In this document: one piece after another, positions 183 to 10,859 of the stretch
How positions within the stretch are numbered: position 1 is the first letter of the stretch
Layout: each line of letters starts with the position of its first letter
IMG/VR virus record: IMGVR_UViG_2693429508_000013
Reading direction: 5' to 3' (one strand)
Source of the DNA: a virus
Lineage: Duplodnaviria > Heunggongvirae > Uroviricota > Caudoviricetes
Length of the DNA stretch: 12,511 nucleotides
Notes under the pieces: generated by a model
Told to the model about the DNA's origin: nothing
Database searches by the model: none
Seen by the model: only the letters and a program-made list of their open reading frames with translations
Position numbers and translations under genes: made by a program

Positions 183-1265
183 TCATTTTCTCTGGCTGAT
201 CTTTACCGGATAACCATCCCGAAGATCAATTAAGTGCTCCGGTTCAGAAGCAAACCATGCATAAGATCCCCACGCCAATTCTGGTATTGCCTTTTTAAAA
301 GGCAGAGCACTTCTGTCCATAAATGCCGTAAGGAATGCAAGATTTTTCTCGCTGAACCCAGCGTCAATAGCCAAATGAGTGAGAGTAACTTTTCGTTCCC
401 TGTTTATAGGCCCATCTGTCGCAACTACTTCAGTGAAAACTACAAGCATGTCCGAACCCGTTCGGTCCTCTCCCAAATCAATCAAAATAATATCTGGAAG
501 TGCTTTTGAGGCATCAATATTCAGCCCCAATGCTTTTGCCAATACATCATCCTGAGCAACAACTTTATTCCCGGATTCAGACAACCAGAGCACAGTTGGA
601 TTCTTAAGAAAATTAGGAGCAAAAACTTCGATGACGGCCTTAGCTATTGTACTTGACGGGCCCGGAGCTAAAGTTCTCTTCTCTCCATTTGGGAAAGTGA
701 CGACTACGGCATCAGCAGCAATCACTGCCCCTGATTTCAATAAACGCAACCTAGCAAGAGCGGCTTTGTTCAAATGATTTTCTTGCCAGGAACTTATTGC
801 ACTCAGCAGCGAATCTCCTTCAAGCCCGGCATCAAAGAGTGCTGCAAAAGAGCGATTCAAACTGTAACGAGGACGAGAGGATGTGGTGGGTATACCTTTA
901 CGCTCAACAATTGCATTGCAAGGTATTAGGCCATTTTTTATAGTTTCATCACGTATTGGCTCACGCGTATTTTCCGCATACCATGCATCAGCAGGCCTTA
1001 TCTTTTGTTTAGAGAAAGTCATCTTTACCCAGCTTTCTCTGGACGCATCATCAGTAAGAGCAGCCTGCGAATCTCCCATACTTACAACCTGGCTGGGCCT
1101 TATCCATCGCCCCAGCCCCTCAACCGCACCAGCATAAAACATGACAAAAATTGTTTTTGCAGCTATTTCCCGAATTAAATATCCACGATTCTCAGTCCCT
1201 TCAGGGAAAATTAATTGTAATCTTTCCCGGATAACATTCAATGGGGGAACAACAGGCAGATTCAT
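183..1265 (-). CDS. Putative Type II restriction endonuclease, cognate to the upstream methyltransferase
   Basis: 360-aa ORF. Its ATG (1265-1263) overlaps the TGA stop of the methyltransferase gene (ATGA overlap on the minus strand), so M then R sit in one coupled operon. No methyltransferase motifs. The nuclease call rests on gene context and AT-rich cargo-like composition, not on a recognised catalytic motif. Confidence 0.55.
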   Translation of the reverse strand: MNLPVVPPLNVIRERLQLIFPEGTENRGYLIREIAAKTIFVMFYAGAVEGLGRWIRPSQVVSMGDSQAALTDDASRESWVKMTFSKQKIRPADAWYAENTREPIRDETIKNGLIPCNAIVERKGIPTTSSRPRYSLNRSFAALFDAGLEGDSLLSAISSWQENHLNKAALARLRLLKSGAVIAADAVVVTFPNGEKRTLAPGPSSTIAKAVIEVFAPNFLKNPTVLWLSESGNKVVAQDDVLAKALGLNIDASKALPDIILIDLGEDRTGSDMLVVFTEVVATDGPINRERKVTLTHLAIDAGFSEKNLAFLTAFMDRSALPFKKAIPELAWGSYAWFASEPEHLIDLRDGYPVKISQRK

Positions 1266-3094
1266 GCAATCATCACTCCATAGAAACCAGCGATAGTTCT
1301 CTCAATAATCCGTCTGTGGACGCCAGCATCAATTAACGATTGAATCTCCATCACCTGCTCCAGAGAAGGCAACGGGATTGAATTCAATTCATAGGCCGAA
1401 ACAGCAACACTTCCGCTTATACACCTGAACGCCCGATCGACAACATGCGAATTAAGTAGCATATCAATAACATCAGGGCGAACCGCAGAGAACAATCCGT
1501 TTGAATATACAATATTAATATGGTTTTCAACTACTACGCCACCAGTTTCATCTATAAATCCCTGAGGTAAAATTGCCGCTAAAATCCTTCTGTCCTGTTC
1601 CTTCGATGTTGTCCGCTGAACAAGCACACATTCAGATTTTGTCACAAGGAAACCCTGTTGTGGGGTTATATCGATATAGGGAACATGATTTTTTCTGTCT
1701 GCACTAAAACGAAAACCAGCTGAAGTTATTGATTCCGCCCAGACTAATGGGTAGCTATTTTTTCCTTTCGTCGTACGCAACTGCGACTTAAATCGATTCC
1801 AGACTAACTGACCTGTAGAGACTGAGTATCCCAGATCAGCTAAACGCGTAGACATCTGTTTTAATACATTAAGAAAACAGGCATCATCTTTAACGCGTGG
1901 CAAAAGCCACGTTGCTCCACCTTTTTCTATATCAACATTACCTATTTTCTCAATTTTTGCTTTGTTCAACCCCTTAGGGACAAGTGAGGATACCTGGGCC
2001 CGAACTTTATGTTCTCCCGCCTTGAATGCTGTCAACATTGTTTCCTGGAGAACATCGTCAAAGACCCCATCCCTGTCAGTGACGAAATCAAGGGCATACG
2101 GAGTAGTTTTTTCGGTCAAAAGGGTTCGCAGCGCGGTGAAATACTGCCCACCAAGAAAAGAAGTTGGCGTAAGAAATGCAATAACTCCTGTTTTCTCTTT
2201 AACCATGCGAACAGCTAAGTCGGTGAACAATCCATATAGATTTGCATGACCAAATAACGAACGAGAATATTTTTCTCTCGTTTTAATATCGAGAGTGACA
2301 CGTCCGTAAGGCGGATTCCCTACCACAAGATCATAACCAGAAAATTTATCTTGCTGAAGCGCATCAGCAACAATAATTGTATCTTCAGGCAATCTACGTT
2401 TTACCTTTACACATAGTGGCATTAGTACAGATTCGAGCAATACCAAACTCATCCAAGCCGCAAATGGATCGATTTCTATCCCCTTTAAACGACGACTGAT
2501 TCTCCTCAACATCCATTCAGGGGAAGACCCCTTGTCTTTTTTTAACATTCGAATGGCTACTGGTGCCAAAAATGCACCGCCACCACACGCAGGATCAATA
2601 ACCGATGCATGAGAAAAATCAACACCAGACTTTTCAGCCAGGTCCAAGAGACGCGCTACCAAAGGTGGGGGGGTATAGTAAGCCCCCAATTCCGAACGGT
2701 AAGCGGATGGCAGCATTACCGTATAAATTGACCCAATCAGATATCCAGCGTCCTCCGCCGGAAATTGAGCAATAAGCTCACCTGTTCGTTCAGCGAGCTC
2801 GCGTGCATCACATGGAATGTCTTCTATGTAAACAGTGTGCGGTACTGCCCTCATTTTAATGCTGCTTTTTTGCTTTTTTGCAAGGGTATCCCAATATGCA
2901 GCTACGATGCTGAAGCAGTATGAGCGGGCATGCATCAACCTTGACTGCCCGGTTTTGTAATTGCCCGCATAACCTTTGGCCATGGCTTTACAAGTTTGAT
3001 ATCTTTCCAGATTAGAAAACTCATTATCTGTAAAAAAATCAAAATGTTGCACATTCATAATGTAAAATCCTAATGTATCAAACATGCGGGCCAT
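1262..3094 (-). CDS. N6-adenine DNA methyltransferase, gamma class (Eco57I-like amino-MTase fold)
   Basis: 610-aa ORF with motif X (YYTPPPLV), motif I SAM-binding (VIDPACGGGAFL) and motif IV catalytic (DLVVGNPPYG) in the gamma-class order X-I-IV. The long C-terminal half is consistent with a target-recognition domain. ATG at 3094-3092. Confidence 0.88.
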   Translation of the reverse strand: MARMFDTLGFYIMNVQHFDFFTDNEFSNLERYQTCKAMAKGYAGNYKTGQSRLMHARSYCFSIVAAYWDTLAKKQKSSIKMRAVPHTVYIEDIPCDARELAERTGELIAQFPAEDAGYLIGSIYTVMLPSAYRSELGAYYTPPPLVARLLDLAEKSGVDFSHASVIDPACGGGAFLAPVAIRMLKKDKGSSPEWMLRRISRRLKGIEIDPFAAWMSLVLLESVLMPLCVKVKRRLPEDTIIVADALQQDKFSGYDLVVGNPPYGRVTLDIKTREKYSRSLFGHANLYGLFTDLAVRMVKEKTGVIAFLTPTSFLGGQYFTALRTLLTEKTTPYALDFVTDRDGVFDDVLQETMLTAFKAGEHKVRAQVSSLVPKGLNKAKIEKIGNVDIEKGGATWLLPRVKDDACFLNVLKQMSTRLADLGYSVSTGQLVWNRFKSQLRTTKGKNSYPLVWAESITSAGFRFSADRKNHVPYIDITPQQGFLVTKSECVLVQRTTSKEQDRRILAAILPQGFIDETGGVVVENHINIVYSNGLFSAVRPDVIDMLLNSHVVDRAFRCISGSVAVSAYELNSIPLPSLEQVMEIQSLIDAGVHRRIIERTIAGFYGVMIA

Positions 3095-4907: not shown

Positions 4908-5654
4908 TTACTTCACAACTCCCGGAAAGCTGACATTTGAACGCCAGCTATCCCAGTTAAACGTCACCCACCGACAACCGTTCATGGTCATGCGGTCCAT
5001 AATCCTCTCACCAAGAAGCGTGCTCATTGCGGCATGATTCAGGTTTGTTAACATCCCGACACTGCACAGTGATGCTGTCCGGCGATCAATTATCTGGTGC
5101 AATACCACCTGCTCGTTTTTCGTCTCCCGCTGAATGCCTATTTCATCCAGGACCAGCAAATCAACCCCGCAAAGCTCCTGTAAAAATTTTTCACCGGATT
5201 TGCCGTTGTCGTAGCTGTCATGCAACACGCTCATGACATCAGACACGGTGACGATAATCACGCTGCGCCCCTTCGCCATCAGCCAGTTACCCATCGCCGC
5301 TGCAAGGTGATTTTTCCCGGTGCCGGTTTTACCGCTGAACACAAAATTCGTGCACCCGGTCATCAGTTCGTCAGCTATGGATTTGGCCTGGCTCAGCGCG
5401 TATTTTTGCCCGTCGTTCTGCACCTGATAATTCGCAAACGAGCATTTGCTGTGCAGAGGCTGGATGCCCGAACGATTCAGGATTTTTTCCACCCGCAACT
5501 GGCGATTCTGGCGGTTAATCTCCTCGCTGCGTTTTCGTCCTTCAGCAAGTTGCCATTCCCGCCACTCCTCCACCGTCCGGTACGGTGGAACCGCCCCCTG
5601 TGGTGCAAGTCTGTGAATACGTTCAAGAACCCCGGCTGCCGCAATGTTTTTCAT
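4908..5654 (-). CDS. DnaC-like replicative helicase loader (AAA+ ATPase)
   Basis: 248 aa with Walker A (FSGKTGTGKNHLA) and Walker B (DLLVLDEIG). ATG 5654-5652 lies 6 nt after the TGA of the upstream O-like gene (coupling). Confidence 0.9.
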   Translation of the reverse strand: MKNIAAAGVLERIHRLAPQGAVPPYRTVEEWREWQLAEGRKRSEEINRQNRQLRVEKILNRSGIQPLHSKCSFANYQVQNDGQKYALSQAKSIADELMTGCTNFVFSGKTGTGKNHLAAAMGNWLMAKGRSVIIVTVSDVMSVLHDSYDNGKSGEKFLQELCGVDLLVLDEIGIQRETKNEQVVLHQIIDRRTASLCSVGMLTNLNHAAMSTLLGERIMDRMTMNGCRWVTFNWDSWRSNVSFPGVVK

Positions 5655-5660
5655 GCCACA

Positions 5661-6725
5661 TCACCCCCTGAATCCCGGCGGAATTTCGGTATCCGGTTCA
5701 GAAATATGATTCACACAACGCTGGTTGTTCGTGCCGCTTACCGGGAGCAACCAGGGGTTTTCAAAATTCCGGTCCGGCCCAAAAAACGTCGTCGCTCGCT
5801 GAACAAATTCCGTTCCCGCTTTCCCGGTCGCCGCCAGGTATCTCGCGTAACGCCTCACACCATCCAGCATGGTCTCTGGTGGCACCCCCTCGCGCAATCT
5901 GGCCTTCCAGGCACTGAATGCGGATTTCTTCGGGTTTGCCCCGGCACGCAACGGGTATTCCCGCCAGACCTGTTCGAACACATCCGGATAATCCACTCGT
6001 CCCACAGGCTGCCCGGTGTTTTCCGGGGCTACCCGATCGGCTTCCCGCTGAATGGCGGAATCGGCTTCAGGCTGCTGCAGTTGGAGTGATTGCTCCGGCC
6101 TTGCGGTCATCACCTGCTGCACAGCGCCCGAATCGGCTTTCAGCGCATACGCTGAATCGGCTTCCGGTGTCGAGCCTGCTGGCTGACCAGGATTGACGGT
6201 CTGAACATCCCCTGCCTGGTTCGTGGCGTTTTTTACGCCATGGACCATAGTGTTTTGATCTTCTTTATCTGTATCTTTATCTGTATCTGTCGTGACTCGT
6301 CGTGACATGTGCGTGACATTTCGTGACGCGCCGTGACAATCGCCATTTTGTTCCCGCTTTCTTTCCCTCTCTCGCTGCGCCCTCTTGCGCTCTGCAGGAG
6401 ATTTTGCGGTTTGCGAAATATTGCCGTTGTCCTCTTTAAGCACCTGGCGTTTTTCCCATCCAGTGATTAAATCACCATCAAGTACCCGCCCCTGCATCGT
6501 CTGCAAAATTGAATCAATTACCTCTTCTGTCACGTCGAGCGCACTTGCCAAATCTTCTGTCGTGACATCAATGTGACCTCGCGTGACATTTCGTGACGCG
6601 CTCACCAGGAGGTGGATATACACTGCCATCACTGTTGCAATTGGCTGCCCTGACACCCTGGCAATTGTTCGCCACTTAGGGTCATTTGGCATGTCATGCC
6701 ATAATCTGAGCCAGGCGTTAGCCAT
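5661..6725 (-). CDS. Phage replisome organizer / replication initiator (lambda O-like)
   Basis: ATG at 6725-6723 (MANAWLRLWHDMPNDPKW...), SD-like AAGAGG just upstream; the track ORF starts at a GTG at 6731. The N-terminal domain resembles phage replisome-organizer N-terminal domains. The central region is low-complexity, T/D/K-rich, and is encoded by the iteron DNA. Directly upstream of the DnaC-like loader. Confidence 0.8.
   Translation of the reverse strand: MANAWLRLWHDMPNDPKWRTIARVSGQPIATVMAVYIHLLVSASRNVTRGHIDVTTEDLASALDVTEEVIDSILQTMQGRVLDGDLITGWEKRQVLKEDNGNISQTAKSPAERKRAQRERERKREQNGDCHGASRNVTHMSRRVTTDTDKDTDKEDQNTMVHGVKNATNQAGDVQTVNPGQPAGSTPEADSAYALKADSGAVQQVMTARPEQSLQLQQPEADSAIQREADRVAPENTGQPVGRVDYPDVFEQVWREYPLRAGANPKKSAFSAWKARLREGVPPETMLDGVRRYARYLAATGKAGTEFVQRATTFFGPDRNFENPWLLPVSGTNNQRCVNHISEPDTEIPPGFRG
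6263..6337. repeat. Iteron cluster 1 plus adjacent AT-rich direct repeat (candidate origin) inside the O-like gene
   Basis: 12-bp direct repeat CTTTATCTGTAT x2 (6263-6286), followed by five CGTGAC hexamers at 6291, 6301, 6312, 6322, 6332 (10-11 bp spacing, one helical turn). Includes the 20-mer GCGTGACATTTCGTGACGCG at 6311-6330. Confidence 0.65.
6529..6600. repeat. Iteron cluster 2 inside the O-like gene
   Basis: CGTGAC at 6561, 6582, 6592, TGTGAC at 6572, and an inverted copy GTCACG at 6529-6534. An exact second copy of GCGTGACATTTCGTGACGCG at 6581-6600, 270 bp from the first. Confidence 0.6.
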
Positions 6726-6796: not shown

Positions 6797-7222
6797 TCAA
6801 TGTACTGCCACAGCATTTCCTGCCGGGCCACCACGGTTCATCTGATTGAAACCGGCGATTGCCACTGCGACAAAATCATCAGCGTCTCTCACCAGTCGTT
6901 CATGCGTCTCCACCAGTTCCCGAAAATAAGCTGAACTGTGGCTGCGCATTCGAGCCACCAGCGGAGGTGGCATTGCCCTTTCGATCGCAGGTAACAACGC
7001 CTGAATTTTTTCAACAGCGTCAGGGGTGTCTTTATCCAGCCAACGGAAAATCTTTTGGGTGTTGAGATAAAGCGTGTTGTGCTTGCTGTCGTTATGCAGA
7101 ACCGGAAACGTCATTCCCAGTTCGAAATAAACCCTGGTTATTTCAGCTGCCGGAACTTTTTCACCGTCCGGATGCGCCCAGGCTTTCATCGCCATGCGGA
7201 TGTGTTCATGCTTGATTTTCAT
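6797..7222 (-). CDS. ydaT: YdaT-like protein (CII-like regulator family of Rac-type prophages)
   Basis: 141 aa, MKIKHEHIRMAMKAWAHPDGEKVPAAEI...; recognised from memory as YdaT-like. Its ATG overlaps the TGA of the upstream Cro-like gene (ATGA at 7219-7222). Confidence 0.75.
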   Translation of the reverse strand: MKIKHEHIRMAMKAWAHPDGEKVPAAEITRVYFELGMTFPVLHNDSKHNTLYLNTQKIFRWLDKDTPDAVEKIQALLPAIERAMPPPLVARMRSHSSAYFRELVETHERLVRDADDFVAVAIAGFNQMNRGGPAGNAVAVH

Positions 7223-7482
7223 GAATCAACCCCCGCCGATGGTTGTGTGTTAGCCTGAAACTCAGCAGGCAAGCCGTCAGTTGGGTTGGGGTAGGTTTTA
7301 CTGTCAATCTCATGTGGGGTCACCACCCATCCCGTTGCTTCACACCAACGTAATATTTTTTCTCCTGTAAGTTTTGCACGCCCCGTTATAACGTGGCTGA
7401 CCATCCCTTGGGATGCGCCAACAATCTCAGCAAATGAACTCTGGGTTATATGAAAATGATGCAAATATTCTCCAAGATTCAT
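7219..7482 (-). CDS. ydaS: YdaS-like Cro-type HTH protein
   Basis: ATG at 7482-7480 (MNLGEYLHHFHITQSSFAEIVGASQGMVSHVITGRAKLTGEKILRW...); the track ORF starts at a TTG at 7509. 87 aa, single HTH. Divergent from the repressor gene across an operator-bearing intergenic region. Confidence 0.75.
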   Translation of the reverse strand: MNLGEYLHHFHITQSSFAEIVGASQGMVSHVITGRAKLTGEKILRWCEATGWVVTPHEIDSKTYPNPTDGLPAEFQANTQPSAGVDS

Positions 7483-7517
7483 AATCCGCCCTATGTGATG
7501 TGTTACCAATGCATAAT

Positions 7518-7559: not shown

Positions 7560-7593
7560 CAAAGTGATTAGCAATCTTATTAGAATTGGATGT

Positions 7594-8094
7594 ATGAAAA
7601 GAAAATCATTGTCAGACACCGACCTCAACGCCGCCAGAAGACTGAAAGAAATCTGGATGGCAAAGAAATCTCAGTTGGGATTGACTCAGGAACGTGCGGC
7701 GGAAATTATGGGGTTTTCAACACAAGGGGCGGTAAGTCACTACCTAAATGGTCAAACCCCACTAAACCTTGAGGCTGTTCTAAAGTTTGCTGGCTTACTG
7801 AAAGTTCCCCCTGAGTCAATCAGGCCAGACATGGTAGATTTGCTGCAAATTGCAAGGATGTATTGTCGAGAACCACAGCAAGATAACATAGTCGCATTAC
7901 CAGCAGACACAGAACAAACAGAGGATGAACTACCGTTTGCCGTAGAGCCGATGGAACGAGATTTAATCCATACGTTCAGAGCTTTTCCGAAAGAAGATCA
8001 AGAACACATGCTTCAGGAGATGAAAGATAAAAAAGAATCAATGGATCGTACGGTTGCGCGGTGGTTAGCTGCACAAAAAGGCCGTCGCGCCTAA
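7594..8094 (+). CDS. Phage repressor-like HTH regulator without a peptidase S24 domain (PaaR-like)
   Basis: ATG at 7594 (MKRKSLSDTDLNAARRLKEIWMAKKSQLGLTQERAAEIMGFSTQGAVSHYLNG...); the track ORF starts at a GTG at 7564. cI/434-type N-terminal HTH, acidic C-terminus, no Ala-Gly/Ser-Lys LexA-like features. First gene of a three-gene unit ending in parE. Confidence 0.75.
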   Translation: MKRKSLSDTDLNAARRLKEIWMAKKSQLGLTQERAAEIMGFSTQGAVSHYLNGQTPLNLEAVLKFAGLLKVPPESIRPDMVDLLQIARMYCREPQQDNIVALPADTEQTEDELPFAVEPMERDLIHTFRAFPKEDQEHMLQEMKDKKESMDRTVARWLAAQKGRRA

Positions 8095-8113: not shown

Positions 8114-8308
8114 ATGAGTACAGTCCTTTCCCCAATGGTTTCAGAATTTGAGACAGTTGAGCAAGAAAATAGTTACAACGAATGGCTGCGGGCCAAAGTA
8201 GCAGCAAGCCTCGCGGATCCCCGCCCGGCGATTCCGCATGATGAGGTAATGGCGGAAATGGAACAAATTATTGCCCAAATTGCTGCTGCAACTCACAGAG
8301 GTGAATAA
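8114..8308 (+). CDS. paaA: PaaA2-like antitoxin, partner of ParE
   Basis: 64 aa, MSTVLSPMVSEFETVEQENSYNEWLRAKVAASLADPRPAIPHDEV...; SD GAGGAG 9 nt upstream. Stop overlaps the parE start (TAATG). Confidence 0.7.
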   Translation: MSTVLSPMVSEFETVEQENSYNEWLRAKVAASLADPRPAIPHDEVMAEMEQIIAQIAAATHRGE

Positions 8309-8598
8309 TGTTACCCGTTTTATGGCTACCATCTGCTCGTGATGATTTGCGCCAGATCGTAGCCTACATAGCTAAAGAAAATCCCGCGGCAGCACGCAGA
8401 ATGAAAATTCGAATTGAAACATCCGTTTTGCCGCTCACAGAGCATCCTTACCTGTATCCTCCAAGCGAGCGAGTTCTTGGTCTTCGTGAAATTGTAACTC
8501 ATCCTAACTACATCATCCTTTACCGAGTAACAGCATCAAGCATAGAAGTAGTAAATATTGTGCATTCTCGAAGACAGTATCCAGGCAAAAACAGTTAA
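8308..8598 (+). CDS. parE: ParE/RelE-family toxin
   Basis: 96 aa, MLPVLWLPSARDDLRQIVAYIAKENPAAARRMKIRIETSV... HPNYIILYRV...; typical ParE length and conserved segments. Translationally coupled to the antitoxin. Confidence 0.85.
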   Translation: MLPVLWLPSARDDLRQIVAYIAKENPAAARRMKIRIETSVLPLTEHPYLYPPSERVLGLREIVTHPNYIILYRVTASSIEVVNIVHSRRQYPGKNS

Positions 8599-9814: not shown

Positions 9815-10301
9815 AAAGTGAATTTTGTGATGCGGTGAATGCGGCTCAGCGCACGCGGCACAGTTAAAAAGCGATTAGTTCCCCCGTATCGGGTGGTTAT
9901 GGGTTTCCCTGTATCCGGCGTTAATTGTTAACTGGTTAACGTCACCTGGAGGCACCAGGCACCGCATCAACAAAGTTCACTTCGGTGATGAAAGGAAAGA
10001 GAAAATGTTGAATGTAGCTATTGAAAACCAGAACGGGTGGAATTATAGTGCACCTGCACCTTATAAAACGGGTGCCGGGCGTGGAAACCCGAACGTTACT
10101 CGAGCGCATAGCCGCGCTGAAGCGGTTTTTTTATGCGTAATGCACAGCTCCATTCAAATTATGGTGGGATGTGCAGGGCAGTCGCAAGACTGGCCGGGTT
10201 CTCGAGTGACCGGTATTTCCACCCCTGTACGTCTCACCACCCTTATGGTCGTGGAAAACCTCGGTGGTGAGTTAATTAACTTATCACTCGAGGATGCCAT
10301 C

Positions 10302-10859
10302 ATGGCTACTATCCCTGCCCTTTCTCACCCTGACGTAACCATCGAAAATGGTCGCGCTGTCACTACGTCTATTGCGATCGCAGAGTTCTTTGGCAAGCGT
10401 CACGACAATGTGTTACGTGCCATCGCAAATACTGAATGCTCACCTGAATTTAACGCCCTCAATTTTGAGGACGTCACCTACACTGACGCCAAAGGCGAAA
10501 AACGCCCGATGTACCAAATCACCAAAAACGGCTTCGTTTTCCTGGTGATGGGATTCACTGGCAAAAAAGCCGCTGCATTTAAAGAAGCCTACATTGCTGA
10601 GTTCGATCGCATGGAGGCCGAACTGCGCCAGAATAACACCCCACCCACTGACAAAATAATTCCAGGCGATGGCCGCACCCTGGTTGTTCACTTCGACGAA
10701 CGCGGCAACATCAGATTCACCGAAACCGTTCCTGATGGCGCACGGGTCTGTACCATGGAGACTTTCCGGTTTTATCTGGAAGAACAGGGATGGACTCTTG
10801 TTAACCGGGGCGCAATTAAAAATATGACTGTAGAGCAATTACTCAAAATTCATTGTTGA
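10302..10859 (+). CDS. rha: Rha-family phage regulatory protein
   Basis: ATG at 10302 with SD AGGA 7 nt upstream. 185 aa, MATIPALSHPDVTIENGRAVTTSIAIAEFFGKRHDNVLRAIAN ... YQITKNGFVFLVMGFTGKKAAAFKEAYIAEFDRME, i.e. a Rha N-terminal domain signature. An in-frame upstream ATG at 10005 would add 99 non-Rha-like residues. Confidence 0.8.
   Translation: MATIPALSHPDVTIENGRAVTTSIAIAEFFGKRHDNVLRAIANTECSPEFNALNFEDVTYTDAKGEKRPMYQITKNGFVFLVMGFTGKKAAAFKEAYIAEFDRMEAELRQNNTPPTDKIIPGDGRTLVVHFDERGNIRFTETVPDGARVCTMETFRFYLEEQGWTLVNRGAIKNMTVEQLLKIHC

Follow-up and report, generated by a model that had tools for sequence, protein, structure and literature searches.

The 12,511 nucleotides of IMGVR_UViG_2693429508_000013, an IMG/VR virus record assigned to the Caudoviricetes (hereafter the window, to which all coordinates refer), probably contain the origin for lytic replication of a lambdoid prophage resembling Rac and CP-933P, written into the prophage's own initiator gene. 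This gene (5661-6725, minus strand, ATG at 6725) encodes a 354 residue 'phage replisome organizer' and holds all of the origin elements which, in gene sense (the minus strand), follow one another as a first cluster of short phased repeats in the N-terminal codons (array 2, 6561-6597), a second cluster of the same repeat in the linker codons (array 1, 6291-6337), and an AT-rich tract (6251-6290). An iteron-type phage origin embedded in an initiator gene should show at least three phased direct repeats within that gene, an easily melted AT-rich tract adjoining them, and a location in the linker codons of a protein with modular N- and C-terminal parts; here there are five plus four repeat cores at 10-11 bp, the tract at 6251-6290, and a disordered segment (residues 128-241) beyond which C-terminal domain and helicase loader are exchanged together. 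A preliminary description of this DNA, made from its letters alone, had proposed an origin embedded in an initiator gene akin to lambda O, to be compared with oriJ of Rac. The embedded origin is supported by the iteron-origin anatomy and by comparative signs of selection on the DNA, while the lambda O kinship and the oriJ link were not sustained.

The hexamer CGTGAC occurs ten times in the 12.5-kb window, nine of these within 6291-6597. Array 1 (plus strand) consists of five copies, GTCACG in gene sense, starting at 6291, 6301, 6312, 6322 and 6332 (spacing 10/11/10/10 bp), and array 2 (plus strand) of copies at 6561, 6582 and 6592 plus a TGTGAC at 6571 that occupies the phased position otherwise empty (spacing 10/11/10 bp). 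An inverted copy (6529-6534, minus strand) lies 27 bp from array 2, within Asp-Val-Thr codons. Neighbouring pairs of the same hexamer 10-11 bp apart number five in the initiator gene, a count reached by none of 2000 dinucleotide-preserving shuffles of that gene (maximum 1), and at least eight copies of any one hexamer appeared in 4 of the 2000. The exact 20-mer GCGTGACATTTCGTGACGCG is present at 6311 and again at 6581, 270 bp apart, and was found in two copies in 0 of 200 shuffles. Tandem Repeats Finder detects an array of 10-bp period (6289-6338) and, beside it, the 12-bp repeat TCTTTATCTGTA at 6262-6288 (2.2 copies, 100% match). Both hexamer clusters with the inverted copy, the tandem AT-rich repeat, the duplicated 20-mer and the repeated peptides SASRNVTRGHIDVTT and GASRNVTHMSRRVTTDTDKDTDKED had all been listed in the preliminary description, and each was recovered at the same position or in the form described, far above the chance level. 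An Rfam scan of the region of the arrays and AT-rich tract returned no RNA family. In a scan for promoters and terminators, the array-1 iterons themselves made up one sigma-70-like match (GTGACA-16-GACAAT, 6313-6340, plus strand) antisense to the initiator gene; matches of this type are no commoner in the region than chance would give, and we treat this one as incidental.

Comparison with relatives indicates that the hexamers are selected at the DNA level. In a column comparison of the window with three E. coli relatives (82-87% identical in DNA, with 4-6 units per array), only 1 of 54 hexamer columns is variable; the spacers, with 8 variable columns of 26, differ significantly from this (Fisher p=4e-4), as do third-codon positions in the remainder of the N-terminal part, where 48 of 114 vary (p=4e-9). 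Hexamer counts are nearly constant among 81 close relatives, 78 of which have 4 and 5, and at the site of the inverted copy all 21 GTCAC-class genes encoding 'DVT' there use GTG for valine, giving GTGAC. The nine direct GTCAC cores (gene sense) start in all three codon phases, encoding the dipeptides CH, SR and VT, indicating that the repeat is a feature of the DNA and not a peptide repeat. In the AlphaFold2 model of the protein, array 1 encodes residues 130-145, in a disordered inter-domain linker, and array 2 encodes residues 43-57, where helix 29-48 ends and loop 49-55 leads up to a helix-turn-helix-like pair. The length of this loop varies among homologues, some of which have insertions of 7-22 residues, so that both arrays lie at sites where the protein tolerates change.

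The AT-rich tract adjoining array 1, our proposed DNA unwinding element, is built on the 12-bp repeat ATCTGTATCTTT, or (GATAMA)n in gene sense, and includes those 30-mers of the gene that have the highest AT content (77%) and the lowest thermodynamic stability. Across homologues the whole-gene AT maximum starts 7-38 nucleotides past the last linker core in 40 of 50 cases, and the island beside array 1 is kept even in GC-rich hosts, in genes that are only 32-40% AT. Its AGATAA motif falls in either of two reading frames, giving Asp-Lys in some genes and Ile-Arg in others, again pointing to an element at the DNA level. Among the 81 close relatives the number of GATAMA units ranges from 3 to 11; otherwise near-identical prophages (the window, L001-L003 and L067-L146; L-numbers label homologue or comparison loci) differ in frame in this repeat, which alters the length of the (TDKD)n linker. 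Homology between the window and O157-type relatives (L004, L005, L006) stops exactly at the tract (~6256-6290), past which these relatives carry a different C-terminal domain (PF17948) and a lambda-P-like loader. This break suggests that the origin also serves as a recombination joint between origin-binding and loader-binding modules, just as the origin within lambdoid O genes is a recombination joint that produces hybrid initiators.

Just past the tract lies an imperfect palindrome (6217-6247) with a TGGCGT-A5-ACGCCA core, whose DNA fold (-8.7 kcal/mol, z = -2.7) was matched by 0 of 200 shuffles. A TGGCG-A5-7-CGCCA core recurs in L008, L009, L010 and L012, all DnaC-type enteric relatives, and the position recalls that of the palindrome adjoining the AT region of lambda ori. 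It could just possibly be a third origin element. We discarded a hairpin past the AT tract as an element common to the family: in 16 of 57 genes it folds better than in shuffled versions (p<=0.05), and the sequences concerned are confined to the enteric DnaC-type subgroup.

The family-wide comparison drew on 58 homologues from Gamma-, Beta- and Alphaproteobacteria with 42%-100% protein identity to the window, the hosts being E. coli, Shigella, E. albertii, Salmonella, Yersinia, Serratia, Pantoea, Erwinia, Pseudomonas, Stenotrophomonas, Bordetella, Acidovorax, Janthinobacterium, Massilia, Sphingomonas and others. Three core classes were distinguished, GTCAC(G), GTAAC(G) and (C)GAACG, which have the pattern xxxACG in common. 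Cores occupy the N-terminal codons (gene nucleotides ~117-181) and the linker (~340-500), with almost no copies in the rest of each gene, and their core-to-core spacing is mostly 10 bp and, for most of the remainder, 11 bp. The linker array is present in homologues with a classifiable motif; both arrays are found in 48 of the 58, array 2 having 4-6 copies in relatives. The preliminary description had called two separated arrays unusual, which is true next to lambda, but within this initiator family they are the rule. In 48 of 48 classifiable genes both arrays belong to the same class (29 GTCAC, 13 GAACG, 6 GTAAC, 0 discordant), a concordance that stands for only a few independent switches, the homologues being related. 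Of the ten genes without a clear array 2, one (L047) has three linker cores and an AT tract, and three more (L039, L041, L051) have one or two degenerate cores. Some relatives keep only the linker array and AT tract, suggesting that the arrays are probably unequal in role: from its distribution, the linker array with the AT tract looks like the core element and array 2 like an accessory. Two loci, L052 (a Serratia metagenome-assembled genome) and L065 (Pantoea), have ACTACGTA-type repeats in place of hexamer arrays, and their initiator homologues contain a protein insertion that is GIY-YIG-like in look (YVY..GIS.NPWAR).

The initiator matches phrog_3729 'replication initiation protein' (E=3e-250), near-identical copies are named 'phage replisome organizer' by NCBI/RefSeq, and its N-terminus, MANAWLRLWHDMPNDPKW, is common to all homologues. 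The term 'O-like', applied to the gene in the preliminary description, is apt for its position and modular logic and fails by sequence: a Pfam scan at E<=10 gave no match to any lambda O family, and only weak ones to HTH_Crp_2, Phage_rep_org_N and PhyR_sigma2, so membership of a lambda O family was rejected. The AlphaFold2 model (mean predicted local distance difference test score, pLDDT, of 62) contains N-domain helices at 3-11, 16-25, 29-48, 56-63 and 67-77 (block-mean pLDDT 64-89 over residues 1-80), a basic helix at 110-126, the disordered segment 128-241 (pLDDT <50) and a helical C-domain at 248-312. We propose the N-terminal helical domain of this model (residues 1-95, codons 6441-6725, minus strand) as the origin-binding domain. 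The C-terminal domain (about residues 242-330, codons 5736-6002, minus strand) is DnaT-like and would be a module binding single-stranded DNA and the loader; the family profile matches the DnaT C-terminal domain (6aep_A E=8.9e-7, 2ru8 4.3e-5, 9zbt 6.4e-4), and the single sequence matches the DnaT tail in NCBIfam at E=0.0016. Downstream of the initiator, different members of the family have a DnaC-like or lambda-P-like partner, a DnaB-family helicase or a partner of unknown kind, and their upstream genes vary as well; in relatives the C-terminal domain is swapped jointly with the type of loader. No gene-level feature other than the N-terminal domain accompanies the arrays in every case, and this constancy, together with the co-variation of array classes, makes the N-terminal domain the most likely ligand of the hexamers.

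These features suggest the following scheme for initiation. An early rightward-type promoter would drive transcription of the cro-like gene, the ydaT-like gene, the initiator gene and the DnaC-like gene. The initiator would then bind, through its N-terminal helical (winged-helix-like) domain, GTCACG cores which, spaced by one helical turn, all face the same side of the DNA; on array 1, five protomers would assemble in phase into an oligomer, distorting the DNA and opening the neighbouring (GATAMA)n tract, whereupon the DnaT-like C-domain would hold the single strand and/or bring in host DnaB by way of the phage DnaC-like loader. Array 2, 260 bp upstream in the same gene, may be bound by the same domain as an auxiliary cluster, acting through dosage control or through cooperative looping that brings both arrays into a single nucleoprotein complex, and the minimal origin would be array 1 plus the AT tract.

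Our preference for an embedded origin must be tempered by several observations that weigh against it. DnaA boxes are absent in and near the arrays, and their total in the window is at chance level (lambda ori is likewise not known to have a DnaA box). Ten of the 58 homologues have no clear array 2, and some show no clear repeats at all. The few class switches behind the array concordance have been mentioned, and gene conversion between the arrays, suggested by the exact 20-mer common to both, could contribute to it. Codon choice in the AT island of GC-rich genes does favour AT-rich synonyms, in keeping with an unwinding element (GAT:GAC 65:5 and AAA:AAG 53:26, compared with 177:272 and 120:186, respectively, in the rest of the genes), but since AT content was the very criterion for selecting the island, this test is partly circular. 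On the protein side, PF09681 Phage_rep_org_N (12.8 bits, cut-off 23.3, E=0.12) and TIGR01714 (15.4 bits, cut-off 49.8, E=0.015) both fall below threshold, with matches spanning residues 5-125 and nearly the whole of each model; hhalign of the initiator family against ORF11 of r1t, a phage of Firmicutes compared below, gave a probability of 6%, no N-domain homology being detectable. A fold search of the AlphaFold2 model against the PDB returned no significant match (best E=1.7), probably owing to the model being about 44% disordered, and its weak matches, to assorted helix-turn-helix and winged-helix proteins, were not used as evidence. In the literature searched we found no binding or replication experiment on this initiator family.

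Two rival accounts deny the repeats a part in initiation. One holds that they are functionless, either slippage and gene-conversion products in flexible segments or a by-product of selection for repeated peptides; the location of both arrays in indel-tolerant protein segments, the evident expansion and contraction of the neighbouring 12-bp repeat and the 20-mer common to both arrays all agree with it. Yet the cores are read in three frames and conserved while the spacers diverge, hexamer numbers are stable in the close relatives (4 and 5 in 78/81) while the AT repeat varies, and relatives from three classes of Proteobacteria, at 42%-100% protein identity, keep the layout and switch hexamer class in concert, such that we give this account almost no credence. 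The other account has the repeats bound by a different factor, in packaging, partition or as a YdaT or Cro operator, with the true origin elsewhere. Phased short direct repeats are known from pac sites and plasmid centromeres as well, and the literature searched yielded no experiment linking initiator and repeats. The known YdaT operator, however, is TTGATT-N6-AATCAA, an inverted repeat differing from the hexamers, and YdaT is absent from many loci carrying arrays; the arrays follow the N-terminal domain into such loci and into others with different regulators and loaders, no partition or terminase genes are adjacent to the initiator locus, and the AT island and linker position match those of proven origins. 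We therefore consider binding by another factor highly improbable.

The remaining alternatives concern array 2. Both arrays may bind the initiator with array 2 lying outside the origin and exerting negative control, either as a roadblock by which accumulated initiator would throttle transcription of its own operon or as a titration/handcuffing site like incA of P1 and incC of F. Plasmids with a second iteron cluster are a precedent for such a function, array 2 lies 260 bp from the AT tract with no AT island of its own, its copy number varies (4-6), and the linker array occurs alone in some relatives and in the r1t and SPP1 genes. On the other hand a lytic phage origin has little obvious need of copy-number control, and the orientation and phasing of array 2, the same as those of array 1, also fit cooperative looping; nothing in the data separates negative control from a positive auxiliary role. 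Negative control by array 2 thus seems to us unlikely, if deserving of serious attention. A further suggestion is that the origin is obligatorily bipartite: with array 2 in the codons of a variable loop of the initiator's own DNA-binding domain, any change of iteron sequence would rewrite that loop (SRNVTRGH, then NATERGRTQ, then VTQSNA), which would couple site and protein physically and allow concerted switches of origin specificity among the three classes. We are doubtful of this stronger form and lend it little confidence; if it were true, such switches could keep the replication of several related prophages in one E. coli genome free of cross-talk. An origin whose core is array 1 with its AT tract remains our preferred explanation.

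Directly downstream of the initiator gene is the DnaC-like helicase loader gene (4908-5654, minus strand; NCBIfam PRK12377 E=1e-150, IstB_IS21 E=2e-19), DUF1627 and DUF977 genes also lie downstream, and upstream are a ydaT-like gene (6797-7222, minus strand) and a cro-like helix-turn-helix gene (7219-7509, minus strand), with a cI-like gene (7564-8094) divergent from the initiator operon. This gene order is that of Rac and CP-933P-type prophages. After the cI-like gene comes a PaaA2 antitoxin and ParE toxin pair (8114-8598, plus strand), which is the arrangement of the paaR2-paaA2-parE2 locus of CP-933P. Elsewhere in the window, 183-3094 (minus strand) encodes a BsuBI/PstI-type restriction endonuclease (360 aa) and an Eco57I/N6-type methyltransferase (610 aa), prophage cargo downstream of the replication module. 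At 10056-10244 (plus strand), in the 5' part of an Ash/Rha-family open reading frame (ORF; 10005-10859), Rfam identifies isrK (61 bits) and C4 antisense RNA (77 bits), a region resembling the c4-ant immunity element of P1/P7 type.

Near-identical copies of the initiator are present in 2524 of 5426 complete E. coli genomes, at up to four places per genome, and in 7 deposited phage genomes including Tritos and Evi; several prophages per enterohaemorrhagic E. coli genome carry the replication module. We also considered a plasmid minimal replicon built on this module and set it aside, the matches being mostly large prophage-bearing records among which only 50.9-kb circles from P. aeruginosa were informative, and these are phage-like. 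The two circles in question, 'plasmid' records L147 (CP124671.1) and CP137943.1, look like lambdoid phage genomes, with CII, NinB, NinG and a DnaB-like helicase; L147, the one examined, carries this initiator with 4 + 4 GTCACG cores, and its PLSDB gene table has no gene over the initiator ORF. Carriage of the module by isolated phages and by such a circular element counts in favour of the origin.

The module thus resides in prophages of nearly half of the complete E. coli genomes searched, with relatives in Salmonella, Yersinia, Pseudomonas, Bordetella and others, and we found no paper defining its origin. The prediction specifies the 6-bp cores and their three specificity classes as well as the tract to be unwound and the joint for recombination. 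It could be used to map prophage induction and replication, to build or cure phage-derived replicons, and for origin-titration ('Per'-type) resistance, and it may help explain how lambdoid prophages living in one host escape, or make use of, one another's initiators. Arrays that switch class together offer a test bed for initiator-iteron specificity. The principle of an origin inside the initiator gene is already established. What we describe is a well-supported prediction of a new member of that known design, for which no earlier description was found in the searchable literature.

Among known origins the closest parallels come from phages whose hosts are Firmicutes: SPP1 and the lactococcal P335-type phages r1t, TP901-1 and Tuc2009. 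The proven origin oriL of SPP1 lies in gene 38, the gene of the replisome organizer G38P, with G38P-binding repeats beside an AT-rich unwinding element, and a 356-bp fragment of it drives replication in vitro (PMC5737612, PMC6316719). The replisome organizers of TP901-1 (ORF13) and Tuc2009 bind direct repeats in their own genes that serve as ori (PMC8965321). Inspecting the linker of SPP1 gene 38 (L150, 7938-8040), we find GAAACGACA twice and GAAAAAGACAC twice with an 11-bp period, after which the gene reaches its AT maximum (GATAAACAACAATGATAACAATG...). Similarly, r1t ORF11 (L148, 4211-4295) contains four GGAACC with an 11-bp period, the only copies in 7 kb, then AGATAAGAATAGATT three times over, and is followed by a DnaC-like gene; Zuniga et al. 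in 2002 are said to have shown r1t Pro11 binding 6-bp repeats. SPP1 oriL and r1t thus resemble the window in having the origin inside the initiator gene between the codons of the N- and C-terminal domains, with short repeats of 10-11-bp period, then an AT-rich tract containing GATAA, and the loader gene next. By this analogy the array-1 module appears to be the proteobacterial counterpart of a known origin design, a likeness that may reflect either deep ancestry or convergence.

Lambda ori lies within gene O (PMC6022878). It shares with the window a location in the linker codons of the initiator and the succession, along the direction of transcription, of iterons, AT-rich tract and possibly palindrome; lambda O also divides the labour as we propose for the present initiator, the N-terminal domain serving the origin and the C-terminal domain the loader. 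The two nevertheless differ in that there is no homology to O and the loader is DnaC-like rather than P. Lambda iterons are palindromic, ~18-19 bp long and arranged in a single array, whereas the cores in the window are asymmetric 6-bp units, one per helical turn, in two arrays. Rac oriJ, which the preliminary description had suggested for comparison, turns out not to be the appropriate relative, and identification of the window as an oriJ-type module was rejected: YdaU is a DUF1376 protein, which the initiator of the window is not, and its gene has other repeats. The Rac ydaU-ydaV region does share the order ydaS/cro-like, ydaT, initiator, DnaC-like, DUF977, as well as an GATACAGATAAAGAT element in the initiator linker and a similar C-terminal tail (IPPGFRG), and BLASTP of YdaU against our initiator finds only this 19-residue tail and the linker in common. 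In K-12 Rac, ydaU (L011, 3768-4135) contains 6 of the 9 copies of TGTTSAA in 8 kb, four of them directly before the GATACAGATAAAGAT element; we regard these repeats as a lead that the origin design extends to another initiator family, and not as evidence for oriJ in the window. Our literature search found no paper placing oriJ at sequence resolution.

In neither SPP1 gene 38 nor r1t ORF11 did we see the linker motif arrayed again in the N-terminal codons, and oriR, the other site of SPP1, lies at a distance of 13 kb as compared with 260 bp for array 2. Two separated clusters of one initiator-binding repeat, only one of them adjoining the unwinding region, are known from P4 (ori and crr), P1 (incC/incA) and F (incB/incC). 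Those clusters are intergenic or kilobases apart and belong to unrelated initiators, whereas both arrays of the window lie inside the initiator ORF, 260 bp apart. The only less ordinary trait of the module is its second array, placed in the codons of the DNA-binding domain and always switching class with array 1.

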